64,000 nt of DNA. It comes from Pseudomonadota bacterium. Lineage in GTDB: Bacteria > Bdellovibrionota > UBA2428. Positions 38,143 through 55,711 of the stretch are shown piece by piece. The notes beneath the pieces are model-generated. The model worked only from the letters and a program-made list of their open reading frames with translations, did not search any database and was not told the origin of the DNA. Position 1 is the first letter of the stretch. Each line of letters opens with the position of its first letter. The DNA lies in contig JAGNHS010000006.1 in NCBI GenBank assembly GCA_018001635.1, positions 2,905 to 66,904 on the forward strand, read 5' to 3'. The position numbers and the translations under genes were made by a program.

Positions 38143-39591
38143 TTATTTTGTACCTGCCAGCTTAGGGAGTGAGTCGATTGTGGCTTGTGAAATCGCATAG
38201 CCCCTAGTTTGAGCAAGTCTTGCAGAAAGTGCCGATACGTAGGGCACCATATGTTTTCCAGGGCAATCATGACCATCATTTACGTTGAGGCAAACTCCCG
38301 TTAGGCAATGTCCTTTATCTCTATGAGTTCGTACGTGTTCTATAGGATATTTCATAGCGATTTGATCTTGAAGTTTTGTGAGGAGAGTTACAACTTCTTC
38401 AGGCACGGCATCTTTATCGTAATCTCCTGCAATTGAAACTCCGATAGATCGAGCATTGCAATCAGACGCGTGACAACCGCGATAACCTAATGGAGTTCCT
38501 TCAAAAATTTTCCACTCTCCTCGAGCATCCTTCTTAATCACAAAATGATAACCCAAATCTTTAAAAGGTTTTTGAAAGCGGTGAAACAAACTCATATCGA
38601 CAAGATTGGGTGATTGAGATCCATCGGTGTGGTGAATAACTATTTCATCGTAGGTGAGTTCTTGTTTTCTTTCCTGGAACCATTTTGGGTCCTGAGAGCT
38701 GACAGTCTGAGTGCTATATTTTCTTTTTTTTCCATTCACAGAGGAAAGAGCGCGATACTTTTGTCCATGGGCTTCCTCAGACCACCATTGTGCGCGAGAT
38801 ACAATATTGACATTTGAATTTGGGCTAAATCTTCGAGAGCTCACTTTGCTTTTGGCATTTTTAAGAGCGTTTCTGTCATTTTCAACAAGGGATAGAAATT
38901 TTGAATGCTGATTTCGGTAATCACTACTAGATAAAGAGAGCCATAAACTGTCTTCAACACATTTAAATTTTTTAGAAATATTGGAATTTTTTAAGGCTTT
39001 AATGAGGGCCAATTGAGTCTGCGTGACTTCTTGTTCTAAGGAGTCATTCTTAACAAGGGCTTCTTGGTCCATTCCGTGGGTTTTCATTTTTACAAAAAAT
39101 CCCTTTTGCGAATGACTTAAAAAGAAATGTTCTTGCTTTTGAACGGCATTCAAATAATTTATAAGACTCAAGTTTAAGCTACTAATGGCGGACTTTGTTC
39201 GACTCTTTTGAGGCCCATCGCTGAGCTTAAGTTTGAGTCCTTCGATGAAAGAAATTCTTTCATCAAGGTGATCTTTGTTGATGTATATTGCAAGTTGATC
39301 GAGATCATTGACTAGACTTGAATCAGGACAGGCACCCTTGTTAAAAATAAATTCTATAGGATCTGAATCAGTTTTAATATTATTGTTTGAACTTTGAGGA
39401 GTTTTTGTGTTTTGAATTTCTTCTCTTGAGGTTGCTTTTGTTGTTGTGTTTTTGTTGCTGTTCGCCGGATTCCTGTGAAAAATTCTACTAAAAAAACTAT
39501 CTGTAGCTGAAAAAACTGCTGGTATTGAAATTAAATTCAACAAACCTAAAATAAAAAAAACAAATGAGTACTGAGTTTTTTTCATGCCCAC
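38143..39591 (-). CDS. Secreted N-acetylmuramoyl-L-alanine amidase (amidase_2/PGRP family) with a long N-terminal region
   Basis: Signal peptide. The C-terminal domain has IVIHHTDGS, GYHFVI, GCHASDCNARSIGVSIAGDY and HRDKGHCLTG. Confidence 0.65.
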   Translation of the reverse strand: MGMKKTQYSFVFFILGLLNLISIPAVFSATDSFFSRIFHRNPANSNKNTTTKATSREEIQNTKTPQSSNNNIKTDSDPIEFIFNKGACPDSSLVNDLDQLAIYINKDHLDERISFIEGLKLKLSDGPQKSRTKSAISSLNLSLINYLNAVQKQEHFFLSHSQKGFFVKMKTHGMDQEALVKNDSLEQEVTQTQLALIKALKNSNISKKFKCVEDSLWLSLSSSDYRNQHSKFLSLVENDRNALKNAKSKVSSRRFSPNSNVNIVSRAQWWSEEAHGQKYRALSSVNGKKRKYSTQTVSSQDPKWFQERKQELTYDEIVIHHTDGSQSPNLVDMSLFHRFQKPFKDLGYHFVIKKDARGEWKIFEGTPLGYRGCHASDCNARSIGVSIAGDYDKDAVPEEVVTLLTKLQDQIAMKYPIEHVRTHRDKGHCLTGVCLNVNDGHDCPGKHMVPYVSALSARLAQTRGYAISQATIDSLPKLAGTK

Positions 39592-39759: not shown

Positions 39760-42700
39760 TTATTTTTTCTTCTTATTCTCTGTTTTGAATAGTTTTCTAA
39801 GAAGTTTTACAACATTCACTTTTTCTTCTTCCTCGGAGATGAGTTGATAACCTACAAAGTTATCCATTTTAGCTTTCCCGATGAGGAATTGTCCAAGGGC
39901 ATCTTCTTCGCTGTAAGCTGTAAAGTTTATAGTTCCAAAGAATCGTGAATTGCCCATAACTTTTTCAATATTAGATTGAGCTGAATCGCTAAGATCTGCA
40001 ATGAGGTCGCCAAACATGAATGTGAAACGATCGTATTCAGAATCTGGAAATTTGGCTTGCACCTCTAAGGCTTTAGCCGCGCCCACTCCATAATCTGTGC
40101 CTCCACCCAGTTGGACTTTATAGAAGTCATTTTCATGGGCTTCGTCAAAATCATAAGCCACTCCGTCAAAAGCCACGTAGGTAAAAACGATGTTTTTATA
40201 TTTGTGTTTTAAAAGTGAGCGAATGTTGAAAATGATTTCCTTCATTTTCTCTACATATCCCATCATACTTCCTGATAGGTCAGAGATAATAGTGACATGG
40301 GCAGAGATGTCGGGGTCAGGTTGCTGCCGATGATTTTTAGAATGAATGTTTTTCTTCTGTAAAAAGTCCACGCCAACTTCGAAGGGGTCAAGCTCGGAGG
40401 TATCCTCGCCCTCTTCTTCTCGAAGGTTGATCACGCCGAGTCCGAGTTTAATGGCATCGCGAACAATTTTCTTAGCCACATAGGGTTTACGGTCTAAAGG
40501 TTGAGAGCCAACAAATATTTTACGCATTTGTTCGGTTTGTCCCTTGAGTGGTCTTAGGTTGGGTAACTCAACTTCATCCTTTATGAGGCTTTGATAAAGC
40601 TCTAATGGAATTTCAATATAAGAGGGGTCGCCACCGCCGCAGCCTTGACCATTTGAGGGTTTGCCTGTGTCACTATCCTCATCGCTACCTTCGTCGGGTT
40701 CTCCGTCGCCTTCACCATCACCGTCATTTCCATCGCCAGGCTGGTTTGAGGATTTTTCAACATAGTATTCCTTGTCCTTAAGACCTTGGGGCTGCAAAAG
40801 AAGTCCATCATCAGTTACAAAGGGATTGTTGTCTAAATCATTCACTTTTGAGAGTAATCTTTTTATTCCGTTTTGCGCACGTCGATCGAAGACTATTCCG
40901 CCAACTTCAGGCAGCACTTTGAGGCTATAGCCGCTGCCAGTTCGAGTGAGGCCACCATTGTTGGCCGCTTTTGAGAATGCCGCTAAAAATCTTTCTGCAA
41001 CTTTTTGGTGATATCGATTGAGTGCTTTGAGAATTCCGTGAGGAACTTCATTGAGTGCCATAGAACCTACAACATCGTTGATGTTTTTATAAATACTACC
41101 TAGAGGATCAATTTCAATTCCTTCTTTGTTTTTGAGAGTGCTGACAATTCCCTTTGGAACTTCAGTTTGATCGATATGGTAATCTATTAAAAATTCTCTT
41201 AAATTTTTAAATAGATGACCGTAAATTTCTTTGTCTACTGTAGATTTTTCTGCAGCCTCAGGAGTCCATTCTCTAAAGCTAGGCGTTTGATGAATTTCAA
41301 TTCCTTCTTCCCAAGAAGAATTACTATCCAATATTTCCATTTTTTTAAGAGTTGAGACGTTTATTTGTCCTTCAGGGTTGACTCTTATTTTCGCTCTAGC
41401 CAAGCGATATCCAATGACTTTCATTTTAGGTTTGAAACTAAACCAGTCCCACGTCACTTCTTTTATAACATCGATGATAAGTGTGGCTTCTAATTCAACA
41501 GTTTTCCTAAGTATTTTGGCCCAACTGAGTAGAGTAGGGGCTACAGTTTTTCTATTGATGGGTGTGAAGTAACCCATTTCATTACTCACAGATAATTTCG
41601 CAACATCATCTGTCTGATTGTGCAAATTATTCCAGACAACACGCGGATAGGCGTAGGAGAGGTTCCAGTCCTGTTGCACTTGATATCGAATACGTTCAGG
41701 ATCGTGAGTGATGACCTGATAGAGGGTGCCGTCCATATAATCTTGAGGAAGAGGAGCCCCTTGTTGAGCAAGTTGGAATTTTTCTTCGTTGCTGAATTTT
41801 TTAACTAGGGCTAGGTGCCTGTTTTTGATCCATTGATCAGTCAGCTTAGAAAAAATAAACATGACATTATTGCCAAGGTTTGGATTGTTTATGATTTCTC
41901 TAGCATAATTTATAAATTTTTGATCGCGCTCCATTCCTTCCAATTTAATGTTTTCAGGGCGCCTATTGAATTCTTCTCTAATTTCTCTCCAAATTTCGAG
42001 TCCGAGAAAATAAGGATTTGTGAGTGAGGGTCGCGCTACTCTTCCAGCGAGCATCCCAATTTCAGCAGCGTCACCAAAACTTCGTGCATAGTCGGGGTGA
42101 TGTGAGAAAATAATTTCCTCAACGAGCATGGCAAAACCTTCATTGAGTAACTTTGTGTTAACGGCACCAGGAATAAAGCGATTCATTTTTTCAAATTTTT
42201 TCGCCATTTCTAATTTCCAAGGTGCGATATCGCTTGGTAGTTCACTAACAAAGGCTTGAAGAAGGCTTACCGTTTGCTTTCCTGAACTCTGACTAGTCTG
42301 AACAAGGCCATCGCGCCATTGATTGAATCCTATGGGTCTGTCAGCCTTTAAGTCTTTAGGTTCTACATAGGCACCGCTCCAAACATCTTGTGCCATTTCA
42401 AGCGAAAGTAAATGGAAAAACCAATCCTCTACTTCTCGAGGATCTTCATATTTTCCAATATCTGTCATTAGTTCATCGAGCTCAACAGAAACTCCAACGC
42501 GATCATGGGAAGTTTTGTGTTTAAAGTAAGAATTCACATGGAAGAAATTATGGCCATAGACGTGAGCCAATATGTTCATGAATAATATGGGACTTAAGTT
42601 GCTCAAGTAATAGCTATGCTGTGTGCTGTGGCCCGAGAGTACAAATTCTAAAACCCCTTGAAGATTTCGTGCTTGATTGAAAATTGCGGCCCCGTCACTC

Positions 42701-42969
42701 CAGCTGCCGACAGGGTAACGATTCACCGCCGCCATTCCAGCCACTGAAGACGGATTGAGTAATTCTACAATATGTTTTTTTATGCCATTTAGAAGACCTA
42801 ATTTATCGGCGATGTCATGAACTTCAGCTAAACGTTTATGATATTCCGCTGCGTCAGGTTGGTTGTGCGAGTCCGCTATTAAGTGCTCTTGGCAGCTGAA
42901 AGAGTGTTGGGCAAAGATGAAGCTAAGGATACTGAGAAACTTTAGAGTGTTTAATCTAATAAAGCTCAT
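39760..42969 (-). CDS. Fusion protein with an N-terminal SpoVR/YcgB-family domain and a C-terminal YeaH/YhbH (DUF444, vWA-like) domain, preceded by a signal-peptide-like N-terminus
   Basis: SpoVR motifs LAHVYGHNFFHVNSYF, NEGFAMLVEEII and NPYFLGLEIWREI. An acidic/Gly linker (DGDGEGDGEPDEGSDEDSD...GCGGGD) is followed by ELPNL and the DUF444 vWA core HVTIISDLSGSMMGY...KYKNIVFTYV...FYKVQLGGGT. Its start overlaps the upstream stop (ATGA). Confidence 0.7.
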   Translation of the reverse strand: MSFIRLNTLKFLSILSFIFAQHSFSCQEHLIADSHNQPDAAEYHKRLAEVHDIADKLGLLNGIKKHIVELLNPSSVAGMAAVNRYPVGSWSDGAAIFNQARNLQGVLEFVLSGHSTQHSYYLSNLSPILFMNILAHVYGHNFFHVNSYFKHKTSHDRVGVSVELDELMTDIGKYEDPREVEDWFFHLLSLEMAQDVWSGAYVEPKDLKADRPIGFNQWRDGLVQTSQSSGKQTVSLLQAFVSELPSDIAPWKLEMAKKFEKMNRFIPGAVNTKLLNEGFAMLVEEIIFSHHPDYARSFGDAAEIGMLAGRVARPSLTNPYFLGLEIWREIREEFNRRPENIKLEGMERDQKFINYAREIINNPNLGNNVMFIFSKLTDQWIKNRHLALVKKFSNEEKFQLAQQGAPLPQDYMDGTLYQVITHDPERIRYQVQQDWNLSYAYPRVVWNNLHNQTDDVAKLSVSNEMGYFTPINRKTVAPTLLSWAKILRKTVELEATLIIDVIKEVTWDWFSFKPKMKVIGYRLARAKIRVNPEGQINVSTLKKMEILDSNSSWEEGIEIHQTPSFREWTPEAAEKSTVDKEIYGHLFKNLREFLIDYHIDQTEVPKGIVSTLKNKEGIEIDPLGSIYKNINDVVGSMALNEVPHGILKALNRYHQKVAERFLAAFSKAANNGGLTRTGSGYSLKVLPEVGGIVFDRRAQNGIKRLLSKVNDLDNNPFVTDDGLLLQPQGLKDKEYYVEKSSNQPGDGNDGDGEGDGEPDEGSDEDSDTGKPSNGQGCGGGDPSYIEIPLELYQSLIKDEVELPNLRPLKGQTEQMRKIFVGSQPLDRKPYVAKKIVRDAIKLGLGVINLREEEGEDTSELDPFEVGVDFLQKKNIHSKNHRQQPDPDISAHVTIISDLSGSMMGYVEKMKEIIFNIRSLLKHKYKNIVFTYVAFDGVAYDFDEAHENDFYKVQLGGGTDYGVGAAKALEVQAKFPDSEYDRFTFMFGDLIADLSDSAQSNIEKVMGNSRFFGTINFTAYSEEDALGQFLIGKAKMDNFVGYQLISEEEEKVNVVKLLRKLFKTENKKKK

Positions 42970-45900
42970 TTTTTCTCCTCAGGAATCAATAAATATTCGC
43001 AACGATCGCCGAATCCAGCATGATTTCTTTCCAATTCCGGAACCTTATCTCTTATGAGATCATTACCTTCTAAAAGTTGTGTGACGTATTCAACAGTAAG
43101 AGGTGAGAGTGGAGATTCTTCAGTTTTAAAGGCAAATTCAGCGAATTCAGCTCGGGTGCTGAGCGCGGGTTCGTCTATGATTTCTTCGAGCATTTTCATC
43201 ATGAAAACGTTGGCATTGTCCCAGGGTAGATTGGCAATGGCTTGGTCTATAGCCCAAAGAAAAATAATCGCTAAATCACTTGAGCTCAAATTTCTGTGGA
43301 GTCCTTTTTGTACTTCTTTGAGTTTGGGATTTAAAAAACCCTGATTAGAGACAAACATTTGAAAGAGGTCTCTTATTTTGTCTGTAGTGCTTGCAAATTC
43401 TTCACGCACTTCTTTTGAGTTTTTCATGGAATCAAGCCAAGCTTGAGAGTTGGATTCTTGAAATCCATTGGATTGATAAAATTTGTAAAACAAATTTTTC
43501 ATGAGCGATTCAATGTTGATAATTAAGCGGCTTATGTATTCACGTTGTCCTTCTTGTTCCTGAATTGAGCCTTTAATTTTTAAAAAATCATCTAGGGAAT
43601 CGCTCTCAAGAACGCTAGACGCGGGAAGTTTGAAAGGAATAACGGGTTTTGAATTATGATGAGCATCCATGAGGTCTTGGAATTCGGAAAGGAAACCAGA
43701 GTGGTTATTTATTTTTAATCGAACTGGGGATAGATCCAAATTCCAAAATCTTAATTCTGGACGATTTCTTAAGTTGAGATAGACTCCCGTGATGAGCGGT
43801 TTGAGGTAGTACATTTCATTTTGAAGACTCGCCCTAAAAAACTTATGATTTTGGATTGAGTTTATGAAATGATTATAAAAATTGATTCTAAAAGAGTTAG
43901 AATTAAATTCTGCGAAATCAAGTCTTCCGCGAAGGTTGTCAAAGGTGACTGGTTTTACAACAACATGTTTCTTAATTTGGTTTCTTAATGTGGTTGAATT
44001 TATAGTGGAACCACCTTCTTCCACTTGATGATCATCATTGTACCATTCATCAACATTCCAATCGTCTTTGAGGTCTTTGCTGTCATGGGTATCGCTTTTA
44101 GAGCTAGTCACATAATAGAGTGGAGCGGGGGCTAGAGAGTCATCTTTAGCTTCTGTGAATAGAGAGTTAGTAACGGGCATTAAAAAGTTTCGCGCGTGAG
44201 CTTTGGGGAAAATTTGTGCAATTTCAGAAAGAATATGTGGATTCACTAAAATCAGTTTGTTTGAAAGAGTTAATTCTTGGAGACTTCGAGCTCTGATTTT
44301 TGAAATCAAACCCGAGGCTTTGGCCTCACGTGGAAAATCACCAAAGTTAATGAGATCAGAAAAACGAGCTAAGATGGAGGGCTCATATTGAGCACCTTCA
44401 ACTTGTGAAAGTGCTGCAATGATTTGTGATTCAATAGAACTAGCATCATCGATATATTGATCTCTAATTTCACGATTGGATGCAGGGTTGATGGTTACAA
44501 ATAAAGAGATATTTCTAACAGGAATTTCGATGGTCATTTTATCTTCAAGACGAGAGACTCTGACCAAGTTGTTGTTCAGTAAGTTTTGGATATAAGACAT
44601 AACTCGACTGAGAACGTTGGCGTTCTTAGCTTTGTGAAGATCGTCAATAAGTATGAAACCTCGGTAGCCGAGAGGAAGTGATAAGAAATTGTCTAAGTGT
44701 TTCAGTGCGTCTTCAACATATAAACTTTTTCCAGTGGCTTCTTCTTTTTTATCTACCAAATCTTCTACTTTTAGGAAAAAGGCTTGAGCATTTTCATCTA
44801 AAGGTCTGTTGAAGTCGTAAACTTTTATATCGAGTAATTGGATGAGCTTCTCAAAGAAAAAAGTTTTTCCTAAACTTGTTTCACCGAAAAATACGGCTGA
44901 TGAGGGAATTTGCTTTGAACTATCGGACCCTTGAGTTTGCGAAAGAATAAGCCTGAAAATTCTTTCTTTGAGATCCAGTTGACCAGCATATCCTAGTTTT
45001 GTGAGATCCACTGCGGCTCGAGCGGTGTCTTTAATTTTATGAAGAACGTCTTCGGGTTCAAGGGATTTATAATTTAAGGGGATGGGGAAAACTTTGGCTA
45101 AAAATCTTTCTACATAGTTTTCGTCAATCACTCGACTTCTTCTGAGTTTATGGTCGTCGACTAATGATTTTCTAAAAATGGAATAGGAGCGTACAAAGGC
45201 TTCGATGGGTTCTTGATTGAGTGAATTGGCAACAGCTTCAATTCGATTGGCTAAAAATTTGGTGATGTTCAAAAACGGAGCGCTGTTTCTTTCGGCGCCA
45301 GATTCGTTTCCATTGTATCGAAATGAGTAATTCAGAGTTCTAATGTCTTCTCGATAGAATAAATTTCTCAAAATGTTAGAGCGGTGCTCTACGCTTGGAT
45401 ATTCAAGTCGAACTATTTCAAAATCTTTTTGAAGATCCATAAAATGCGACTCAAGGCCTAAATCTTTTTCTAAATCTTCGATTTGTTCAGGAGTGGCTAC
45501 AATAATTTCTGAAACGCTTGGGGTAGCTTCATCTCTTAAGCGCCATTGCTTTTTTAATTTAGGTTGGATTCTTCTACCTTCGGAGGCCAACCACCACATG
45601 ATGTGAGGGAAAATTGTATTGGGTTTGTCTATGTCGCTACGAGAAGAACTGTTTCCATCTTTGTCACTGCCTTCGTTGGGGCTGTTGGCGCTCGATTGAG
45701 CCTCGGAAGCCGTTTCAGCTAATAGCTCAGTTTTTTTCATGGCCGCAGGATCGCTAATTCTAAAAGGTTTGATGTCGCTTTTTTCTCCAACTAGTGGACG
45801 TTCATTGCGTAAAAGGTCGCTCGCATCTGCTAAAAGAACAACACTATTTTCTTGGCTGAGTCTTCTCATGGCGTCTAGATTGCCAAAGATTTCTTCTTGA

Positions 45901-48900
45901 TGAACTTTTCCACCTTGTGGATATCTGAATATTGAAAGATGGGGATTTCGAAAATTCCAGGAAGTGTTTAAATTTGGATTTCCATTAGTATCTCTTTCTA
46001 GGGCCACGTTGTAGCGACTCGACCAATGAGTCATTAAAAAGCGAAGCATGAGTTTTTTGATGTTTTCAGGGACAACTATGATTCTATGTTTAGGTTTTTC
46101 AGGTTTTTTAGAGAGCTCACTCAAAATGGGTCTTAAATTTGGGAAAACTTGAAGATCGTCTGAGGTGAGCGCACTCACCGACATTCTTCTGATGTCAGGA
46201 GTGGATCTCGGAGTGTTCGGAGGCCAGTTGTACCATTGTGAGGTTAAGAATCTTGCATCGATTTCAAATAGACCTTTGTCTACTAAGCCTGCTTTGAATT
46301 CATGAGGATGAGCTTCTTGAAGTTTTAAAAGTTTTTTAGGAGTTGTTAGAACAACAGTTGTCACAGATTTGAAGGAGTCTGATGGAGAGCTTAAATCTTT
46401 AAGGTGTCGTCCTTTTCCTTCCGTGGCTAAGAGAAAAAGTCCAGAAAGTTTATGGGGCGAAGAGGGATCGTAAATGTGATCAGACGAGGTTGAGCGTGCT
46501 GATTCGGAGAAGCTTTCTTCATCGAGTTCATCGCCACCTTGGTTTGTTTCTACAACTTCTGGTTCATCTTCTTCATGCTTGTGTTTAGTTCCTTTGTTTC
46601 TGCCGTCGTTCTCTTCTTCATCCTCTTCGTCATCTTCTGTCTTTTTGTTTGAAGCTTTAGACTCGGGATCATTATTAGCGCTTACGGTTTCGATTCCCAT
46701 TTGTCTTTCAGAGTCGCTTGAGGCGTAGTCGAGTATGCTAAACGAGGATGCACTGTCACTATCTTCAGAGTTTTTGCCGTCTGTTTCTAATATGAAAGTT
46801 TGTAAAAGCTCGTCGGAGCCTGCAAATAGTACGTTTTGTGTTGTTGATTCAGAGGCAAGTTTTAATTCCTTGCGCATTTCCCGAGCATCGGATTGATGGT
46901 CAAAGAAGTAGAGTTCAAAATCGTTTCCACCGGGTTTCCATTTAAGGGACCAACCTGTTTTTTTGTTATCGAGTTTAAGGAGCATGAGGTTATAAAAGTT
47001 GGCGTAGTCTTCGTCAGACACTACAAGGAAAGTTTTTTTACCTTTTTTAGAAGGATCTACGACTAAGGAATCTAGGTACTCGTCTAAGAGTGGGTAAAGT
47101 GGTCCTTTCCCCCCAGGTCCGAAATTTAAATCTTTATAAGTTTTAGCTTGCTCAGCTTCATTTCCGTCGAGTGCTTTGGAAAGTGTTGAATTAATTGAGC
47201 GTAATCCAGTGGAGGATGAAATGCTCCATCGACTTCCTATCCAAAATAAGCGACCCTCTTTTTCGTTTTCCTGAACAATTCTTTCTTTAAGGCGAATATT
47301 AATATTTTCTTTTGAGGGAACAACAAGTTTAGAGACGTAATTAAAACATCTCATTTTATATTTTGCAGAAAAATAATCTTCATTGGGAGTGTCAACCCAA
47401 TACAGGGCACCATTGCCATCGGGAAGCACTCGGTCGCTAATGCGATTGGCGGTCACATAACTTTTTGTAAGCCAACCTGAGGAATCTGGAATGTTGTTGG
47501 CTGTGAATTCAATTTTTCCAGCTTTGAGTTGAGATTGAATTTCGTATCCTAGCAGATACACGCCACCCGTGTTCTGACGAGTCCTTTTGAGAAAGAGCAT
47601 AACGTAAATGCTGTTAGCGTGCTTTCTTAAACCTTTAAAAACTCTTACACCCTCAATTTGAGAGAATGAAAATGGAAGCTCTCGTGTGGCGAAGAAAGTG
47701 TTCTTTATGTTTTCTCCAACTCGACCCTCGTAATTAAAAAGGGTCACAAGATTGAATTTTCCTTCTAAATTAGGTTGCTGAGAGTTGTTTGGAAGCATTC
47801 CAAACAAATGGATTTTGAAGGCTTCCAATTGCTTCGAAGATTCGCTGAGTGGAAGATGAATGTCAGTGGTGTATAGAACAGCACGAATGGAATCTTTGGA
47901 AATGGATGTTCTTGAATTTTTCTTTGTCTTTGTTTTTGAGCTATTGGAATAGATAAGCTGTCCGGGAATGAATGATGAATCATCTTTGTTTAAATGCGAT
48001 GTTGAATCAGCAGGTGTTTCGTGTCGATCTGCGGAATGCGTATCCTCAAGATAGACTCCGGTTTTTTCATTGAGTTGTGATTGTTTGTCGTTATTGAATT
48101 CTCGATAAACAACATGGGGGCTCATGATTACGGGAAACTCGTTTTTAGCTTGAAGAAATACTGTTTTCTTTTTGGGGTCGCTTTCAGAGACGTTAAGATA
48201 GGCGGTGACTCGCAGTCCTCCGGGATTTTTTTGAGAATCACTTCTATAGGTTTTGGGCCCCACGCGAGGAGTGCTGTTGTCGAAAACTAAACCAAGGTTT
48301 TCCACATTCTTGATTCGTAATTCTAGTTCTTCTTTGCTGAAACTGTACGTATTCGATATAACCTGCATGTCTTTAACGCTGACGTGACCCATGGATTCTT
48401 CAAGTTCAATCGCGAAAGTTCCCCCTCCAGGATAATATTGAGTTTTTCCTGATAAAATTAAATAATGTTTTTTGTAAACCGCACCAGAAATGAGTTCGTC
48501 ATCAGGGGTGTTGTCTGAAAATCCAAAAATGGGTGCTGATTTTCTTTTTTCGATTTTAGGTTGTGGAAGATCAAAGGACTCTAGAATTATAACGTTGTCG
48601 TTGTTGAAAGGGTCGAATTTGAGTTTGGTAAATTGTTCTTGAACTTCGACAACCTGAATACTTCTGTTTCTGGATTTTAGTCTTAACAGAATGCTTTTAT
48701 CCAATGAGAATAAAACCTCAACAGAGGAATCGTTTGAGAGAGATCGAGTTAAAAACTTTTTATTGTCTTGATCCCAGCTGAGTCTTCCTTTTTGGGGTGG
48801 AGTACCTTCATATTGAAAGGAGAGCCCATCTCCTAAGGGTTCAAAGAATTGAGTGACTCCCGAAATGGCCATGTTAGAAACTTGAGGTTCGGGTCTTTTC

Positions 48901-49844
48901 TCGAGGACATCCACTAAGGGAGGATTAGTGAGCACACTCAGTTTAAGAGATTTTCCAGAATTAATATCGATGTCTCTATATCGACTTGTAAAAGTTTTTT
49001 TATCGATTTTGGAATTGGGGTCGAGATAATCCAATAAAAGCTTCACTTTTTTTAACCAAATATCAACGAGAGGGTGCTCTTTGTCGTTTTTCCATTTTTC
49101 ATAAACTGTTTTTAGAAGATAGGGGGAGTATGCTTTGTCGGGTGAATAGTCGGCAAAAAGTCTTATGAGTCCTTGGTCTGTGGGGTGAAATCTATAATCG
49201 AGGAGCACCGGTTCAGATATTTTAAATTCACCTGTTTCGATGCCTCCGTTTTTAACAATAGCAAAAGTGATTCCGTCAGAACCCATTTGAGGAATGCCTT
49301 GCTTAACTGAGATGATATACATACACGAGTTGTCTACAGGGTATTGTACAATCGTGATGTCTTTGGGGTCCTTTATGTTTTCAAGATAAATTTTACGTTT
49401 CGTGAGAGGATCGATGATTGGGACGGGAGTGGCAAATTTGTTGGGTATTTTTTGGGATTCATTAGCGCCAATAATGAGTGAGCTGGCTGCTTTTTTTTCT
49501 GAAGTGTTTTTGTTAACGATATAAATTTGTCCATCGAGAATGACTAAGGCTTCTTGATTTCCTTGTTGAGTGACAGGAGCTAAGAGTACAAAAGTTTCAG
49601 CGGATCGCTTATTCACGCCAAGCACTTCTTTTTGAATCAGTGGAGTAGAGTTTTCAGCTCCAGTATTAAAAAAATAAATTCCCTTTTTTTTGCCATTGAG
49701 TTCAGTGTTGAATACCAACTCGTATAAGGCTCTTGCATTATGAGGATGTGGAAAAATGAAAGACCCCTCGTCGGCCGCGCGTAAGGCTCCACTTTGTCCG
49801 ACAAGTAGGGCGGCAAGGGCAATATGTTTGAGGAGGTGTCTCAT
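42966..49844 (-). CDS. Giant (2292 aa) secreted protein with a Clp/Hsp100-like AAA+ ATPase domain and a poly-acidic low-complexity region
   Basis: Signal peptide (LKHIALAALLVGQSGALRA). Walker A FFGETSLGKT and Walker B GFILIDDLHKA, with ...LFVTINPASN resembling the Clp D2 core. A long Asp/Glu/Ser tract (TEDDEEDEEENDG...). The remainder is unassigned. Confidence 0.6.
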   Translation of the reverse strand: MRHLLKHIALAALLVGQSGALRAADEGSFIFPHPHNARALYELVFNTELNGKKKGIYFFNTGAENSTPLIQKEVLGVNKRSAETFVLLAPVTQQGNQEALVILDGQIYIVNKNTSEKKAASSLIIGANESQKIPNKFATPVPIIDPLTKRKIYLENIKDPKDITIVQYPVDNSCMYIISVKQGIPQMGSDGITFAIVKNGGIETGEFKISEPVLLDYRFHPTDQGLIRLFADYSPDKAYSPYLLKTVYEKWKNDKEHPLVDIWLKKVKLLLDYLDPNSKIDKKTFTSRYRDIDINSGKSLKLSVLTNPPLVDVLEKRPEPQVSNMAISGVTQFFEPLGDGLSFQYEGTPPQKGRLSWDQDNKKFLTRSLSNDSSVEVLFSLDKSILLRLKSRNRSIQVVEVQEQFTKLKFDPFNNDNVIILESFDLPQPKIEKRKSAPIFGFSDNTPDDELISGAVYKKHYLILSGKTQYYPGGGTFAIELEESMGHVSVKDMQVISNTYSFSKEELELRIKNVENLGLVFDNSTPRVGPKTYRSDSQKNPGGLRVTAYLNVSESDPKKKTVFLQAKNEFPVIMSPHVVYREFNNDKQSQLNEKTGVYLEDTHSADRHETPADSTSHLNKDDSSFIPGQLIYSNSSKTKTKKNSRTSISKDSIRAVLYTTDIHLPLSESSKQLEAFKIHLFGMLPNNSQQPNLEGKFNLVTLFNYEGRVGENIKNTFFATRELPFSFSQIEGVRVFKGLRKHANSIYVMLFLKRTRQNTGGVYLLGYEIQSQLKAGKIEFTANNIPDSSGWLTKSYVTANRISDRVLPDGNGALYWVDTPNEDYFSAKYKMRCFNYVSKLVVPSKENINIRLKERIVQENEKEGRLFWIGSRWSISSSTGLRSINSTLSKALDGNEAEQAKTYKDLNFGPGGKGPLYPLLDEYLDSLVVDPSKKGKKTFLVVSDEDYANFYNLMLLKLDNKKTGWSLKWKPGGNDFELYFFDHQSDAREMRKELKLASESTTQNVLFAGSDELLQTFILETDGKNSEDSDSASSFSILDYASSDSERQMGIETVSANNDPESKASNKKTEDDEEDEEENDGRNKGTKHKHEEDEPEVVETNQGGDELDEESFSESARSTSSDHIYDPSSPHKLSGLFLLATEGKGRHLKDLSSPSDSFKSVTTVVLTTPKKLLKLQEAHPHEFKAGLVDKGLFEIDARFLTSQWYNWPPNTPRSTPDIRRMSVSALTSDDLQVFPNLRPILSELSKKPEKPKHRIIVVPENIKKLMLRFLMTHWSSRYNVALERDTNGNPNLNTSWNFRNPHLSIFRYPQGGKVHQEEIFGNLDAMRRLSQENSVVLLADASDLLRNERPLVGEKSDIKPFRISDPAAMKKTELLAETASEAQSSANSPNEGSDKDGNSSSRSDIDKPNTIFPHIMWWLASEGRRIQPKLKKQWRLRDEATPSVSEIIVATPEQIEDLEKDLGLESHFMDLQKDFEIVRLEYPSVEHRSNILRNLFYREDIRTLNYSFRYNGNESGAERNSAPFLNITKFLANRIEAVANSLNQEPIEAFVRSYSIFRKSLVDDHKLRRSRVIDENYVERFLAKVFPIPLNYKSLEPEDVLHKIKDTARAAVDLTKLGYAGQLDLKERIFRLILSQTQGSDSSKQIPSSAVFFGETSLGKTFFFEKLIQLLDIKVYDFNRPLDENAQAFFLKVEDLVDKKEEATGKSLYVEDALKHLDNFLSLPLGYRGFILIDDLHKAKNANVLSRVMSYIQNLLNNNLVRVSRLEDKMTIEIPVRNISLFVTINPASNREIRDQYIDDASSIESQIIAALSQVEGAQYEPSILARFSDLINFGDFPREAKASGLISKIRARSLQELTLSNKLILVNPHILSEIAQIFPKAHARNFLMPVTNSLFTEAKDDSLAPAPLYYVTSSKSDTHDSKDLKDDWNVDEWYNDDHQVEEGGSTINSTTLRNQIKKHVVVKPVTFDNLRGRLDFAEFNSNSFRINFYNHFINSIQNHKFFRASLQNEMYYLKPLITGVYLNLRNRPELRFWNLDLSPVRLKINNHSGFLSEFQDLMDAHHNSKPVIPFKLPASSVLESDSLDDFLKIKGSIQEQEGQREYISRLIINIESLMKNLFYKFYQSNGFQESNSQAWLDSMKNSKEVREEFASTTDKIRDLFQMFVSNQGFLNPKLKEVQKGLHRNLSSSDLAIIFLWAIDQAIANLPWDNANVFMMKMLEEIIDEPALSTRAEFAEFAFKTEESPLSPLTVEYVTQLLEGNDLIRDKVPELERNHAGFGDRCEYLLIPEEKK

Positions 49845-49862: not shown

Positions 49863-52463
49863 TTATTTTTTGTCGTGCTTGTTGACGTGCTCCACTAAGA
49901 ATCGAAGCGCTTGCACGAAAGATCTCTCGTTGTATCCGTATCTTTCCAAGTTGCTGAGTATCTTTTGCCCAGCCGTTTGAGTTTCAGTGGCCACGGATCT
50001 TCCTTGCATGAAATCAAGGAGGCTTTGGTAGCTGTTAGTTTTTAAGTTCTGACTCATCAACCAATCAGAAATAGCTTTTTCAAGCTTAATCCACATGGGG
50101 AGGGGTGATCCGTCAGTATTATGAAGCGCTAAATTGGCAACATAAGCTTGGAGATCTGGGGGATTAAGATCGTCGCCCCAGCGTTTTCTAAAGGCCTTTT
50201 TAATTTCAGTGAGTCTATCAAAATTGATGGCAGTAGGTATGTCGCCTTTTGATTTAGTGTGGTGTGTGGCTTTAGAGTCTTGCGCTAAGTGTGAAATTTC
50301 CGAAGTGACTGCATCGTAAATACTGCGCACTTTATTGGTGTCGTTAGCAATAATCGAGTTCACATCGTTCATGAGCTTAGGAAGTATGAGCTCTGCTGCA
50401 ATTCTCTCGGCGAGTTCGAGCCATTTAGCGTATTCAGGGCGTTCCTTTTGAAATTGGTTTTCGTGAAGGGTGAGTCTAAAGGCGTCTTTTATTTCTACAG
50501 GAGTTAAAGTGTTTGAATGTCCGGGAGATTGTGCGAGTTCAAGGGCCTTTTTAAAGACCACTTCAATATCGCGTTGTCCAATTCCATTATCGCCTTCATT
50601 GAGAAGAGCTTCCTTTGAGAATTCCGTTAAAGCCGCTAGAACTTCTTGATTCTCAACAACTTCATCTCCTGTGATAATTCGAAGACGGTCAATTGGGTCG
50701 GTGAACCATCTTAGATCGGGACGTGTGATACGAGTGAGAATGTTGGCGTCTTTGAGTTTATCGATATTTGTTTCAAGCGAAGAGCCTGCGGCAATGCATC
50801 CCAAGAAATATAGCGAATAGGGTGAAATATCGACAAAGGAACTTTTGCTAGCGCTGATTTCAGCTGGCGAATCAATTTTAACTCTTACGGCGTAATGACC
50901 CTCAGGGCCTGAAATATTTCCATTGCTGTCGGGTTCTGCATAAATTTCCTTGATGAGGGGTGAATTTGAGCTTTCGTTTAGTGTGGCGAGATTTTTGTGT
51001 TCTGTTGAATCCAATTTGCGTGCACTAAAGTTATTGGGTTTGAGAGTGAGTAAAAGTGCAAGCTCTCTCCATCTTGGATGGAGGAGGTTTTTCATGGCAA
51101 TATGTTGTAAGCGAGATAGAAGAGCGTCGGTGTCCATGCGTTTTTTGGAATCTGCAATGGAACTATAGTTTGCAGAAAACACATTAAAGGTGTCCATCGC
51201 TAAAGCGGGGGTGTCTGAACCTTTGGCGACGCCTTCTTGTAATACAGAAAGTAGGAAGTGGAGAACTACGGGGTCGTTTCGAGTAACGTCGTCCCAAATG
51301 ATCATGGAGCCATCGTTTTGAGAGAGGGGTCCGTTAAAATGGAAGCCGAGAGTGTTATTGGCGCCTTTAATTCTTGCGGCTACGTTGGCAGTTCCAATTA
51401 AAGAAGAGGTGTCGGGGGCTTCTTCCATAGGACGAATAATGGGATCGCGATTGGAGGCAAGGCTGATGTCTTTTCTTGCAATACCCACAAAATTTTCAAA
51501 TATGGCTAAATAGTCAGCTACGGTGAGAGAAGTTGCTTTTGTGGCTTTTAAAATATGTTTTTTATAAAAAGGAATGAGAAATTCTCTTAGGATATCTTCT
51601 GCATGAGAATCGCGGGCGACAGCTTGGCCAGGATTTCTTTCGTAGAAATCACCAATGTCGAAACCTAACATTTTAGAGGCGGTGGCACCTAGAGTTTTTG
51701 CGTAAGCCACTTTGAGTTCGGTGGGAAGTAGGCTGAAGGGACTTCTTTGAAGGCTTGTAACATTAAGGCGATCGCTATCTTTGACTAAGAATTGATCGAG
51801 TCTTTGACCTAATGAAGGATCAGTTTGTTTTATCATGTCCAAATTTTTCCAAAAATAGGTGTATTCCTTGAATAGAGGATCTCGAACTGAGAGGTGGGCT
51901 AGGGCATATCGAATGACGTATTCGAGAACTGTTTTTCCAGTTCCTGGAGGTCCCTTTAAAAGTGGTCCTTTACTTCCGCGCATACCTTGTGCGGCTTCGG
52001 AGATGATTTTTGCCAAGCTCGAGCTAGCTTCATATTGGCCTACGAGAAAAAGTCCGCCAGTTGCGGGCAAGGCATCATGATAGACTTTGGGAACATTATA
52101 ATATTGGTGCTTGTAGACGGGGTCTAAAACTCGGCGATATCCAAAATTATTCAAGACCGCTAATTGTTTTTGATCAGCATTCATTAAAAGTAAGGGATGC
52201 TCTTTTATGAGATCGGGTAATTTTGAAAAAGGATACTCTACGGCGTATTCTTCGGTGCCGGCAATAGCTAGTTGAGCCACTGTTTCGGGCACTAAAAGAG
52301 TTGAGCATAATTTTGGATCAACATGAAAACTTTTAGGAGTGCTAGTTGTTGATTTAGCCGCGGATGCTTTTTTGCTTTCTGCTGCAAATGAAAAATTTTC
52401 TAAGCTCATTAAAAAAATAACGACGTGTGTAATTTTTAGAATTGTAGGTAGGCTTTTTCTCAT
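49863..52463 (-). CDS. Divergent PrkA/YeaG-like AAA+ serine protein kinase homolog with a signal-peptide-like N-terminus
   Basis: Walker A LLKGPPGTGKT. The region LIGTANVAARIKG...GPLSQNDGSMIIWDD...VLHFLLSVLQEGVA parallels PrkA LVGKVD...GALCRANQGIMEFVE...LHPLLTATQEGNY. The C-terminus GYNERSFVQALRFL parallels PrkA GYTRKQVRLLCEW. Homology assignment is from recollection of YeaG. Confidence 0.55.
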   Translation of the reverse strand: MRKSLPTILKITHVVIFLMSLENFSFAAESKKASAAKSTTSTPKSFHVDPKLCSTLLVPETVAQLAIAGTEEYAVEYPFSKLPDLIKEHPLLLMNADQKQLAVLNNFGYRRVLDPVYKHQYYNVPKVYHDALPATGGLFLVGQYEASSSLAKIISEAAQGMRGSKGPLLKGPPGTGKTVLEYVIRYALAHLSVRDPLFKEYTYFWKNLDMIKQTDPSLGQRLDQFLVKDSDRLNVTSLQRSPFSLLPTELKVAYAKTLGATASKMLGFDIGDFYERNPGQAVARDSHAEDILREFLIPFYKKHILKATKATSLTVADYLAIFENFVGIARKDISLASNRDPIIRPMEEAPDTSSLIGTANVAARIKGANNTLGFHFNGPLSQNDGSMIIWDDVTRNDPVVLHFLLSVLQEGVAKGSDTPALAMDTFNVFSANYSSIADSKKRMDTDALLSRLQHIAMKNLLHPRWRELALLLTLKPNNFSARKLDSTEHKNLATLNESSNSPLIKEIYAEPDSNGNISGPEGHYAVRVKIDSPAEISASKSSFVDISPYSLYFLGCIAAGSSLETNIDKLKDANILTRITRPDLRWFTDPIDRLRIITGDEVVENQEVLAALTEFSKEALLNEGDNGIGQRDIEVVFKKALELAQSPGHSNTLTPVEIKDAFRLTLHENQFQKERPEYAKWLELAERIAAELILPKLMNDVNSIIANDTNKVRSIYDAVTSEISHLAQDSKATHHTKSKGDIPTAINFDRLTEIKKAFRKRWGDDLNPPDLQAYVANLALHNTDGSPLPMWIKLEKAISDWLMSQNLKTNSYQSLLDFMQGRSVATETQTAGQKILSNLERYGYNERSFVQALRFLVEHVNKHDKK

Positions 52464-52608: not shown

Positions 52609-53148
52609 ATGCGAGTCGTTTTTGTTTTTTCTTTTTTATGGGCTGCGCTTCTTTATTCTGCCACAACGAGTCAAGATTCTGCGAGCACTATATATTTTAA
52701 GGTGCTCAAGGGTTTTGATGTAGAAAAAAAGAAATCAAATGCTGAAGTAGACGCATTAGTCGGCAAAAAAATTCGCATTCCTGGATTTATGGTTCCTCTT
52801 GAATATAAATCTCAAAAGGTGACTGAGTTTTTGTTAGTACAGTCTCTTCCCTCTTGCATTCACGTACCTCCCCCCTCTCCTAATCAAACCATTATGGTGA
52901 AGATGAAGGATAAAAAAACAGTGTCTTTGAGTATGGATCCCATTTGGGTGACAGGAATCTTAAAATTGGTCAAACAAGACAAATATACATTTGGTGATGC
53001 CGTTTATAGCATTGAGGGCGAGTCTTCTGCTCCTGTAGATTCAAAAGACTTTAATAAAGTGGGTTTATTTATGGGAGATCAGGTGGATATGGCTCCTTTA
53101 GAGGAGAATCCTTTTGGTGGTGAGAGTAAAACTAAGAAAAAGAAATAG
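52609..53148 (+). CDS. DUF3299-like periplasmic protein
   Basis: Signal peptide. The FLLVQSLPSCIHVPPPSPNQ motif is characteristic of DUF3299 (assignment from recollection). Confidence 0.5.
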   Translation: MRVVFVFSFLWAALLYSATTSQDSASTIYFKVLKGFDVEKKKSNAEVDALVGKKIRIPGFMVPLEYKSQKVTEFLLVQSLPSCIHVPPPSPNQTIMVKMKDKKTVSLSMDPIWVTGILKLVKQDKYTFGDAVYSIEGESSAPVDSKDFNKVGLFMGDQVDMAPLEENPFGGESKTKKKK

Positions 53149-53185
53149 AAATAGTTTAAGAAATAGACTTAAAGGGTACGACATT

Positions 53186-53761
53186 ATGAAAAAGCATTTT
53201 TTAAAATCCCTAACATTAAGTTTGTGTCTCTCAATAACTTTGATGGCCAAAGAAAAACATCATCATCATGAGTCTTTGGCAAAGCATATTCACGGTGAAG
53301 CTAATCTCAATTTGATACTTGAAGATGATAAAAAGGGTGAGCTTGAATTTGAGGCCCCTGGCATGGATGTCGTTGGATTTGAATACGATGCCAAAACACC
53401 CAAGGAAAAAGAGAAGCTCAATCAAGTTTTGTCAGAATTTAAAAGCAAAGCTCAAGAATTATTTGTTTTGGATGCAAGTCTAAAATGCGTTTTAACTCCT
53501 AAAGAGGTGGCCTGGGAATCGGAGGATCACGAAGAGCCTGAAGGCGTTCATAGAGATCATGAAAAACAGCCCGTCGCAGAACATCATGCGATTGAAGCTT
53601 CTTACTCTATAAATTGTCAAAAGCCTCTTAAGGGGACTCGTTTTAATTTGGAGCTTTTCAAAAAATTTAAATCGTTAAAAAAAGTCAATTTTCAGTATAT
53701 GGGCAGCAATCTTCAGCGGGCCAGCGAGTTGTCTGCTGGAAAGTCTAGCATTGAGCTCTAA
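53186..53761 (+). CDS. His-rich periplasmic metal-binding protein, ZrgA/DUF2796-like
   Basis: Signal peptide. HHHHE, HIHGE and HRDHEKQPVAEHH tracts. The start is set at the internal ATG at 53186 (MKKHF). Confidence 0.5.
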   Translation: MKKHFLKSLTLSLCLSITLMAKEKHHHHESLAKHIHGEANLNLILEDDKKGELEFEAPGMDVVGFEYDAKTPKEKEKLNQVLSEFKSKAQELFVLDASLKCVLTPKEVAWESEDHEEPEGVHRDHEKQPVAEHHAIEASYSINCQKPLKGTRFNLELFKKFKSLKKVNFQYMGSNLQRASELSAGKSSIEL

Positions 53762-54455
53762 AGAGTCCATTTCTGTAGAGGCTTTAGAGTTTTCATATGT
53801 AAGAAATTCTAAGCCCTTGTTAAAAATTCCTGATTTAAAAATATTAAATGGAGATAGAGTTTTTTTATTTGGCCCAAGTGGTTCCGGAAAAAGCACCTTG
53901 CTTTCATTGCTCACTGGAGTTTTGAAACCTCAAAAAGGCAAGATAACACTTTTAAATAATTTTGAAATATCTCAGGCTAATACTATGGCGGCCGATATTT
54001 TTCGGGGGGCGCATATGGGGTATATATTCCAGCAGTTTAATTTGCTTCCTCATTTAAGCGTGCGCGAAAATATTTCATTAGTTTTGGATTTAAATCCTCT
54101 CCGATTAAATAAAGTTTTAAAATCAAGCACTGTTGAATTGGAAATTAAAAGATTAGCTCAACATTTAGAGATTGAAAATATCTTAGATCGCTCTGCAATG
54201 GCTATTAGTGTTGGTCAGCAACAACGAGTTGCCGCTGCTCGTGCCTTAATTGGTGCTCCGGACATTATTATTGCTGATGAACCCACATCTTCTTTGGATA
54301 CAGATCGCCGAGATCTTTTTATGAAAATGATTCTTAGTGAAGTTGAATTGAGTCAAAGCACTTTGATTTTTGTGAGTCATGATCAAAGTTTGATGAAGCA
54401 TTTTAATAAGCATTTTTCTATTCTGGATTGGAGTGCAGAGGGAGTCGTGCAGTGA
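53751..54455 (+). CDS. ABC transporter ATP-binding protein
   Basis: Walker A GPSGSGKST, Q-loop, signature VGQQQRVAAARAL and Walker B IIIADEPTSSLD. Confidence 0.85.
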   Translation: MSSKESISVEALEFSYVRNSKPLLKIPDLKILNGDRVFLFGPSGSGKSTLLSLLTGVLKPQKGKITLLNNFEISQANTMAADIFRGAHMGYIFQQFNLLPHLSVRENISLVLDLNPLRLNKVLKSSTVELEIKRLAQHLEIENILDRSAMAISVGQQQRVAAARALIGAPDIIIADEPTSSLDTDRRDLFMKMILSEVELSQSTLIFVSHDQSLMKHFNKHFSILDWSAEGVVQ

Positions 54456-55711
54456 TTTGGTGGCGTTTGGCGATTCGTTCTCTTGTCTTTCGTTGGCAGG
54501 CTTCATTACTAACTGTAGTTTCTATGGCGCTCAGTGTGGCGCTTTATTGTTCGGTTGAATCTCTGCGGTTGGGGGTTCATGAAACTTTTGAACAAACTGT
54601 AAGTCAAACAGATCTTATCGTGGGTGCTCGAAGCTCACCTCTGAATATTATTTTATACACCCTTTTTCATATGGGCGATGCTACGAACAATCTTCGTTAT
54701 GAAACTTTTAAGAAAATTTCATCGCATCCCGTAGTTCGATGGAGCATTCCTTTTTCTTTGGGTGATTCCCATCGTGGCTTTAGGGTGATGGCCACTAATG
54801 AAAGTTTTTATGAGTTTTTTCAATTTCGTGGGAATTGGCATATTGAATTTAATTCTGGAACTTTAGCCAAAGATGTTTTCGATGTTGTTTTAGGTTCCGA
54901 AGTGGCGGCCCGCTTGAATTACAAACTGAATGACAGAGTTGTGATTGCCCATGGAATGAGTTCAGAGAAGGGTGCTTTTTCAGAGCACAGTGATAAACCA
55001 TTTCATGTGGTGGGTATTTTGAAGCGCACAGGGACACCGGTCGATCGGGCTCTTTTTATAACTCTTGAAGGAATGGAAGCTATTCATATTAATTGGAAGG
55101 ATGGCTCAGCAGATGAATCTTCAACTCCTAAAGCGATAACAAAAGATCAGATTAAGGTGACACAAATCACATCTTTTCTATTGGGGCTGAAGTCGCGTGT
55201 TGCAGTTTTACATATGCAAAGGATGATTCAAAATTATGCGGATGAGTCTCTTGAGGCGGCTATTCCTGGTTTTGTACTGAGCCGCTTTTGGGAAAGTCTT
55301 GGAGCCTTTGAGCGCACTTTAAGTTTAATGACTCTAGCTATCTTTATAGTGGGGCTTATAGGTATGTTGATTGCATTGCTGACGTCTTTGGATCAGAGGC
55401 GAAGAGAAATGGCTGTCTTGAGGGCTTTGGGTTCTAGGGCTTTTCAAATATTTATTTTACTTTTAAGCGAAGCTTATTTTTTGATGGCTTCTTCTATTGT
55501 TGCAGGTTTGGGTCTCTATTCTCTTTTGTTCTTTCTCTTTCGTGATTTTGTTGAGTCAAAATATGGTGTGGTTTTAGTCTTGTGGCCCTTTGATTCTGAG
55601 AATCTCTATATTCTTTTAGGTCTCTTTGTGGCGGGAACTATCGCGGCATTAATACCTGCAGCTGTTGCCTACCTTAGAAGTGTTTCAGATGGATTGCAGC
55701 AAAGAACTTAG
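54428..55711 (+). CDS. ABC transporter permease, FtsX/MacB-like. A likely GTG start at 54452 overlaps the ATPase stop.
   Basis: N-terminal TM segment, a large periplasmic domain and three C-terminal TM helices, the typical FtsX-like architecture. Confidence 0.7.
   Translation: MECRGSRAVIWWRLAIRSLVFRWQASLLTVVSMALSVALYCSVESLRLGVHETFEQTVSQTDLIVGARSSPLNIILYTLFHMGDATNNLRYETFKKISSHPVVRWSIPFSLGDSHRGFRVMATNESFYEFFQFRGNWHIEFNSGTLAKDVFDVVLGSEVAARLNYKLNDRVVIAHGMSSEKGAFSEHSDKPFHVVGILKRTGTPVDRALFITLEGMEAIHINWKDGSADESSTPKAITKDQIKVTQITSFLLGLKSRVAVLHMQRMIQNYADESLEAAIPGFVLSRFWESLGAFERTLSLMTLAIFIVGLIGMLIALLTSLDQRRREMAVLRALGSRAFQIFILLLSEAYFLMASSIVAGLGLYSLLFFLFRDFVESKYGVVLVLWPFDSENLYILLGLFVAGTIAALIPAAVAYLRSVSDGLQQRT

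Follow-up and report, generated by a model that had tools for sequence, protein, structure and literature searches.

Predicted export of a PrkA–YeaH–SpoVR module and an accompanying giant ATPase in the Bdellovibrionota

PrkA/YeaG, YeaH/YhbH and SpoVR/YcgB make up a widespread bacterial module that is tied to sporulation and starvation survival. In its canonical form the module is encoded by a prkA–yeaH(yhbH)–spoVR(ycgB) operon, as represented by bd0228-bd0231 of Bdellovibrio bacteriovorus and by yeaGH together with ycgB of Escherichia coli, where yeaG and yeaH are adjacent. The prkA–spoVR operon bd0228-0231 of B. bacteriovorus was likened by the authors who described it to operons in many non-predatory bacteria (PMC5430801). 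Here we analyse a related operon in a 64,000-nucleotide (nt) stretch of DNA, referred to below as the window, from a bacterium placed in the Bdellovibrionota (assembly GCA_018001635.1, contig JAGNHS010000006.1, positions 2,905 to 66,904); all coordinates given are positions in the window. The first gene of the operon (49863-52463, minus strand) is an open reading frame (ORF) for a PrkA/YeaG-like AAA+ protein of 866 amino acids (aa), and it was this single protein that a first-pass annotation had picked out as a PrkA-like kinase homologue with an N-terminal signal peptide. The prediction of an exported protein stands; its scope proved too narrow, as the same feature runs through a three-gene operon and a whole protein family.

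On sequence evidence the operon holds all three components of the normally cytoplasmic PrkA–YeaH–SpoVR module together with one extra ATPase. The same three families are present as in the canonical operon and the prkA-type gene again comes first. It differs in that SpoVR and YeaH form a single fusion protein (about 1050-1140 aa), that the genes for prkA and the fusion are separated by the gene for a giant protein (1779-2292 aa) containing a second P-loop domain, and that every product has a signal-peptide-like N-terminus. The gene for the giant protein (gene 2; 2292 aa; 42966-49844, minus strand) starts 18 nt past the stop codon of the PrkA-like gene, and its own stop codon is overlapped by the start of gene 3 (ATGA), which encodes the SpoVR::YeaH/YhbH (DUF444) fusion (1069 aa; 39760-42969, minus strand). 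Two Pfam families match the fusion protein above cut-off, SpoVR at residues 100-397 (46.6 bits) and DUF444 at residues 867-1064 (60.7 bits), and TIGR02877 (YhbH) aligns to residues 745-1059. We conclude that the operon probably encodes a PrkA–YeaH–SpoVR module of an exported type, the proteins of which are predicted to carry cleavable Sec signal peptides and to leave the cytoplasm.

The relationship of the 866-aa protein to PrkA/YeaG can be followed over nearly its whole length. The Pfam model PF06798 (PrkA C-terminal domain) matched marginally, at 26.6 bits against a cut-off of 25 and over profile positions 2-117 of 255, while PF08298 (AAA_PrkA) reached 20.5 bits over positions 195-306 of 358, below its cut-off of 25. 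An NCBIfam scan gave no match to the PrkA model (NF011999) at E <= 1, E. coli YeaG itself scoring 1342 bits with the same library. When a profile of 122 family sequences was compared with E. coli YeaG using hhalign, the two aligned with 99.3% probability (E 7e-21, 596 columns, 16% identity), with query residues 58-811 matching YeaG 13-634 and both domains covered. Judged from these alignments, the protein is a true yet distant PrkA/YeaG homologue, in agreement with the first-pass annotation. It shares with E. coli YeaG and with PrkA of Bacillus subtilis and Bacillus anthracis the order of an AAA+ domain followed by a PrkA-type C-terminal domain, and also the genomic linkage to YeaH/YhbH and SpoVR. 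YeaG, in contrast, is ~220 aa shorter and its N-terminus has no signal peptide, linker or Cys motif, all three of which are found in the window protein. Less can be said for the word ‘kinase’: B. anthracis PrkA has negligible kinase and protease activity and has been classed as an AAA+ ATPase (PMC13001217), and the label should therefore be used cautiously. Database labels of family members include ‘hypothetical protein’, ‘predicted Ser/Thr protein kinase’ and ‘sigma 54-interacting transcriptional regulator’, the last of which is probably wrong. AlphaFold2 modelling with the 122-sequence alignment gave a predicted local distance difference test (pLDDT) value of 91.2 and a predicted template modelling (pTM) score of 0.88; the full alignment was needed, as with three sequences only the pLDDT was 33.7. 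A Foldseek search of the PDB returned AAA+ ATPases (PspF/NtrC-type activators, LonB/LonC and ClpC) at E ~1e-3 and no match annotated as PrkA.

The 866-aa ORF begins MRKSLPTILKITHVVIFLMSLENFSFAAES, exactly as quoted in the first-pass annotation, and residues 1-27 (52383-52463, minus strand) are predicted to form a Sec signal peptide. The n-region, MRKSLPTILK, contains the basic residues R2, K3 and K10 (net charge +3). It is followed by an 11-residue hydrophobic core, ITHVVIFLMSL (I11-L21; mean Kyte-Doolittle value 2.12), and by a c-region, ENFSFA, that places small residues at -3 (S25) and -1 (A27) of a predicted cleavage site between A27 and A28 (S25-F26-A27/A28, the slash marking the site here and below). 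These and all other signal peptide calls were made by a heuristic scoring of our own; as a sanity check, the same heuristic scored low for presumed cytoplasmic housekeeping ORFs of the window, among them those at 34502-35992, 35989-37512, 4293-6071 and 6087-7793. It can be seen in the AlphaFold2 model that residues 5-28 form a helix, that residues 29-46 are disordered (pLDDT <50) and that a compact, confident fold begins at about residue 50. The low-complexity linker between the two, rich in Lys, Ser, Thr and Ala, comprises residues 28-49 (52317-52382, minus strand) and holds several substitutions relative to a 97%-identical copy of the protein. The signal peptide stretch differs from that of locus L003 at one DNA position, which is synonymous, against ~9 changes within the 97 nt upstream.

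Two other types of targeting signal were rejected on reading the sequences. No Cys directly follows the core and there is no lipobox ([LVI][ASTVI][GAS]C) of the kind recognised by signal peptidase II in lipoproteins, the first Cys, C53, lying 26 residues past the predicted cleavage site (this distance ranges from 3 to 37 residues across the family). A twin-arginine translocation (Tat) signal was likewise set aside; MRKSLPTILK has no RR pair, and a twin-arginine motif is not general among the family N-termini listed.

Were the start codon mis-called, the hydrophobic segment would not be translated and the protein would be an ordinary cytoplasmic PrkA homologue. The annotated ATG is indeed not preceded by a Shine-Dalgarno sequence, and a weak upstream GGTG is not kept in L003. 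However, a Shine-Dalgarno core was found within 20 nt at only 5/34 ORF starts of the window, and for this reason its absence at the annotated ATG is uninformative and any test based on the ribosome-binding site is weak. Four codons upstream of the ATG there is an in-frame stop, which rules out an earlier start of the ORF. The in-frame downstream starts M19, V58, V62, M94, L104 and L132 all lack a Shine-Dalgarno sequence; M19 falls within the hydrophobic core, and with M94 or any later start the protein would lose residues 59-91, which do not vary in a three-sequence alignment that includes a 44%-identical orthologue. A downstream start that has a good ribosome-binding site and drops the hydrophobic segment, which the first-pass annotation had named as the finding that would undo its proposal, was thus not seen, in a test that is of low power here. 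Sequence conservation is the stronger argument for the annotated start, the hydrophobic N-terminus also being kept in relatives down to ~20% identity and in both partner proteins, and we consider a mis-called start highly improbable.

Hydrophobic N-termini are frequent among the ORFs of the window, and a single case alone would therefore be weak proof of a signal peptide. N-termini that resemble signal peptides occur in many window ORFs, as would suit the genome of a predator rich in secreted proteins. The GC content of the window is 40%. For the PrkA-like protein the feature can be followed through the family. An exhaustive HMMER search of 1.84 billion cluster representatives gave 197 matches at E <= 1e-3, of which 175 remained at E <= 1e-10; almost all are 800-870 aa in length. 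Canonical PrkA would be expected to span far more than 197 clusters and is therefore apparently absent from these matches, so that the sequences look like a separate, bounded side branch of the PrkA/YeaG family. A word-index homologue search with the protein gave two matches (97% and 44% identity) and one with the family profile gave two, so that the family came to light through the HMMER search only. A strongly hydrophobic N-terminal decamer is present in 109/125 full-length members. A short hydrophobic core (median 13.5 aa) is present in 116 of the 122 aligned members and extends to at least 19 aa in only 8 of the 116; 112 of the 122 have Ala at -1, and the -3 residue is small or aliphatic. 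Core length and the Ala at -1 together are, to judge by the sequences, those of a Sec signal peptide that is cleaved and not those of a membrane anchor. We conclude that the hydrophobic segment at the N-terminus appears to be a genuine and conserved signal peptide.

The partner proteins have the same feature, as all 32 of the N-termini examined, drawn from the three operon proteins of the window and 11 other loci, were signal-peptide-like. In each, a basic start is followed by a short hydrophobic core and then by an AxA-type site (as in SAFA/NREE, PAWA/NDDD, FALA/ADP and TVSA/VNE; in the window giant protein, MRHLLKHIALAALLVGQSGALRA/AD). Early mature regions are mostly neutral or acidic in the partner proteins, which is expected for exported proteins. 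No internal transmembrane-like segment was found in the PrkA-like, giant or SpoVR::YeaH protein. The cysteine content of these three proteins is 0.13-0.23%, against ~1% in other window ORFs, which is weakly consistent with an extracytoplasmic location.

A potential explanation that would keep the proteins attached to the cell is that the hydrophobic segment is an uncleaved signal anchor, which would tether them to the periplasmic face of the predator’s inner membrane to act on the envelope, for example on peptidoglycan; anchoring of this kind had been one of the suggestions of the first-pass annotation. The window protein has a short core with a flexible linker after it. Directly downstream of the operon, 168 nt away and on the same strand, is a gene (38143-39591, minus strand) for a 482-aa Amidase_2 protein (N-acetylmuramoyl-L-alanine amidase), a peptidoglycan hydrolase with its own signal peptide, and SpoVR homologues have been tied to cortex formation in Bacillus and Myxococcus in work cited in PMC5430801. 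All of this would suit an anchored machine. Against it, the family cores are of signal peptide length and the near-universal Ala at -1 follows the pattern of a cleavage site, for which reasons a cleaved signal peptide is the likelier of the two. Moreover, the amidase gene is not kept as a neighbour in L008, L010, L012 and L013, and two ATPases with conserved motifs would not be expected to find ATP in the periplasm. An uncleaved anchor is therefore, in our view, unlikely.

The converse topology, with the N-terminus outside and the C-terminus inside, would hold the ATPase domains at the inner membrane on its cytoplasmic side and would do away with the difficulty over ATP. Conserved ATPases would then be kept beside their nucleotide, and in some PrkA-like members there is a net positive charge, up to +3, just past the hydrophobic segment. 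The charge ahead of the segment nevertheless favours an N-in orientation, being +1 to +6 in 27/27 N-termini scored, and the partner proteins mostly have neutral or acidic stretches beyond it. The cores are in addition too short for a membrane span, and so low a cysteine content is more in keeping with an exported protein. We regard this reverse arrangement as improbable, and retain export by cleavable signal peptides as the preferred explanation.

The full gene order of PrkA-like, giant and SpoVR::DUF444 was found in the window, at L001, L003, L008, L010, L011, L012 and L013, and on the contig of member P0152, complete operons being found down to ~20% identity of the PrkA-like protein. At four further loci (L005, L006, L007 and L014) the operon is partial and is cut by the end of the contig. 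A scan for promoters and terminators was at chance level.

The giant protein had no Pfam family above its gathering cut-off and no NCBIfam, PADLOC or PDB sequence match. Its sequence includes a long low-complexity stretch of acidic character and, near residue 1650, a single P-loop domain. This P-loop/AAA+-like domain (residues 1649-1760; 44565-44900, minus strand) was recognised from a weak Pfam AAA_22 match (21 bits against a cut-off of 27) and from conserved motifs, a Walker A sequence GETSLGKT (44862-44885, minus strand) and a Walker B sequence FILIDD (44640-44657, minus strand), both of which are kept in 6/6 full-length orthologues. Orthologues of 1779-2248 aa occupy the same operon position in other loci. 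A word-index search with the giant protein found one distant homologue (24% identity, 2012 aa), and comparison with the PrkA-like profile showed likeness around the P-loop only (hhalign probability 4%). In the fusion protein, a DLSGS sequence (40267-40281) is a possible metal-ion-dependent adhesion site (MIDAS) motif of a von Willebrand factor A (vWA) domain. PADLOC gave no defence-system match for any of the three operon proteins.

The sole conserved cysteine of the PrkA-like family, Cys53 of the window protein (52305-52307, minus strand), lies in a C-[ES]-x-x-[LF] motif that is present in 93% of members. A similar motif is found in the fusion protein at C26 (42892-42894); both cysteines are shortly past the predicted cleavage site and the shared pattern can be written C-[ESAQ]-x-x-[LFIM]. 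It was present in 7/7 fusion proteins read (window, L001, L008, L010, L011, L012 and L013). The flanks of the motif are alike within one genome, as can be seen at L001, where DTCEQRFQLPDE is to be compared with DACEKKFSPDPK. The shared motif might mediate an intermolecular disulfide or serve as a common docking or sorting motif.

We next consider the ATPase motifs, the conservation of which bears on where the module could act. The Walker A motif of the PrkA-like protein, GPPGTGKT (residues 171-178; 51930-51953, minus strand), is intact and K177 is invariant (122/122). The Walker B motif, MIIWDD (residues 387-392; 51288-51305, minus strand), ends in DD in the window protein, its closest relatives and 7/122 members in all, and in DE in 115/122. 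The sensor-1 residue N432 and the candidate arginine finger R451 (51105-51179, minus strand), whose roles we infer from their position in the AAA+ fold, are again invariant in all 122. In the region of the Pfam PrkA C-terminal domain (residues 592-710; 50334-50690, minus strand), G624, G627 and R631 are invariant and R593, E623 and D700 near-invariant in the family. R562 is found in 120/122 members and is replaced by Ser (codon at about 50778-50780) in the window protein, a change that is unique to it among the 122 apart from its 97% twin. The first-pass annotation had proposed that the Walker A/B and C-terminal residues be checked for conservation: Walker A is intact, the C-terminal region holds invariant and near-invariant residues, and Walker B departs from the family consensus in this lineage. 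Invariance of K177, N432 and R451, with DE in most members, indicates that the ATPase sites are under selection and that nucleotide use is probably real in most of the family. The DD and S562 substitutions suggest that the window protein itself may hydrolyse ATP poorly.

These substitutions also bear on the possibility that the proteins are exported and no longer use ATP, the P-loop being a structural relic or a binder of another ligand outside the cell. The two deviations of the window lineage, one of them at the near-universal R562, would fit such a loss. Across the family, however, the Walker A lysine, sensor-1 and arginine finger positions do not vary, the DE form of Walker B prevails, and the giant protein retains both of its motifs in every full-length orthologue. 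We think it improbable that ATP use has been lost.

If export and nucleotide use are both accepted, the difficulty is that ATP is not expected in the periplasm. This concern had been raised in the first-pass annotation and is sharpened, not removed, by our results. The proposed sequence of events would be as follows. The three proteins would be co-expressed from one operon and each would cross the inner membrane by its Sec-type signal peptide. Outside the producer’s cytoplasm they would assemble into a nucleotide-dependent remodelling machine. Such a machine would work only where ATP is present, which for a predator would most plausibly be the invaded prey (bdelloplast or prey cytoplasm), and ATP availability could serve as its on-switch. 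In Bdellovibrio the Sec system is reported to be important for the secretion of degradative enzymes to the cytoplasm of the prey (PMC2797640). Given that ATP is not expected in the periplasm, that the ATPase motifs show conservation and that the predatory carriers employ Sec for the secretion of enzymes into prey, the most economical site of action would be an ATP-containing prey compartment, with ATP as fuel and possibly as a cue; we put this forward tentatively, as a possibility that we judge well short of likely. The more specific proposal, that Bdellovibrionota secrete a multi-subunit ATP-driven AAA+ machine which operates inside invaded prey and takes prey ATP as both fuel and location cue, has about the same or a slightly lower probability. 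The observation with which the first-pass annotation began is confirmed and broadened, and its interpretation is supported in part.

Some points weigh against the exported, prey-directed reading. Signal peptides were assigned by heuristic scoring and export is a prediction. The core of the window protein is the weakest of the set, with 11 residues that include His13 and are followed by Glu22, and several PrkA-like members have Lys-rich stretches just past the predicted cleavage site. A Lys-rich early mature region can hinder Sec export. The partner genes are absent at one locus only, L009, where member P0113 (10001-12463, on a 1.6-Mb contig) has a signal peptide and the Cys motif and no adjacent giant or SpoVR::YeaH genes. 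The window lineage deviates at two ATPase positions, and conservation of the ATPase motifs speaks against a role confined to the periplasm. Delivery to prey is plausible; the sequence holds no sign of passage across the outer membrane or of prey entry. Lastly, the taxonomic restriction of the family is drawn from a small sample of five named members.

A total of 30 members were looked up. The taxon-specific names found were Oligoflexia bacterium, Bacteriovoracaceae bacterium and two Bdellovibrionales, with one more member named only ‘bacterium’; all five taxon-named members (two Bacteriovoracaceae, two Bdellovibrionales and one Oligoflexia) belong to the Bdellovibrionota. The 97%-identical copy of the PrkA-like protein is at the one locus that a scan of genome contigs returned and comes from a metagenome-assembled genome of an uncultured Bacteriovoracaceae, which places the organism of the window in a predator lineage. 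We conclude that the family is a previously undescribed, Bdellovibrionota-associated branch of PrkA/YeaG AAA+ proteins.

Comparison with better known systems gives partial analogies. MoxR–vWA pairs are similar in function in that an AAA+ ATPase is encoded next to a presumed vWA-type protein; MoxR systems, however, lie in the cytoplasm or face it and do not have the additional kinase-like C-terminal domain of PrkA, and no membership of the MoxR group is claimed here. Sec-secreted toxins of the anthrax edema factor type would resemble the proposed machine in that their activity needs a host nucleotide that is present only inside the target cell. They differ in having an unrelated fold and mechanism and a known route of entry into the target cell, whereas none is known for the operon proteins. 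Literature searches on secreted or periplasmic AAA+ proteins and on PrkA in Bdellovibrio returned nothing on this family, on a secreted PrkA or on exported AAA+ proteins. To our knowledge, no Sec-exported AAA+ remodelling system has been described. What is known is thus the canonical cytoplasmic module; what appears to be new, on the evidence of these sequences, is a lineage-restricted PrkA–YeaH–SpoVR operon that also encodes a giant ATPase and the products of which are apparently exported.

With regard to the other neighbours of the operon, a divergent cluster (52609-55711, plus strand) encodes a DUF3299 protein, a ZrgA-family zinc-uptake protein, an ATP-binding cassette (ABC) ATPase and a permease, and looks like a zinc-import system. 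At the orthologous locus with the 44%-identical protein, the operon is adjoined by a divergent gene for a 972-aa M16 peptidase (L001 6879-9797; L002 3570-6488). A 978-aa ORF of the window (10043-12979), ~40 kb away, may be its counterpart.

An exported branch of this family would challenge the assumption that AAA+ machines act only in the ATP-rich cytoplasm. It would also amount to a natural experiment, since the target of the module must be one that can be reached from outside the producer’s inner membrane. The gene set is compact and conserved, and hence testable, given a cultured member. In predatory bacteria the operon would be a candidate device for the manipulation or digestion of prey and, if action inside prey is true, the enigmatic PrkA–YeaH–SpoVR module would gain a defined role tied to one particular compartment.

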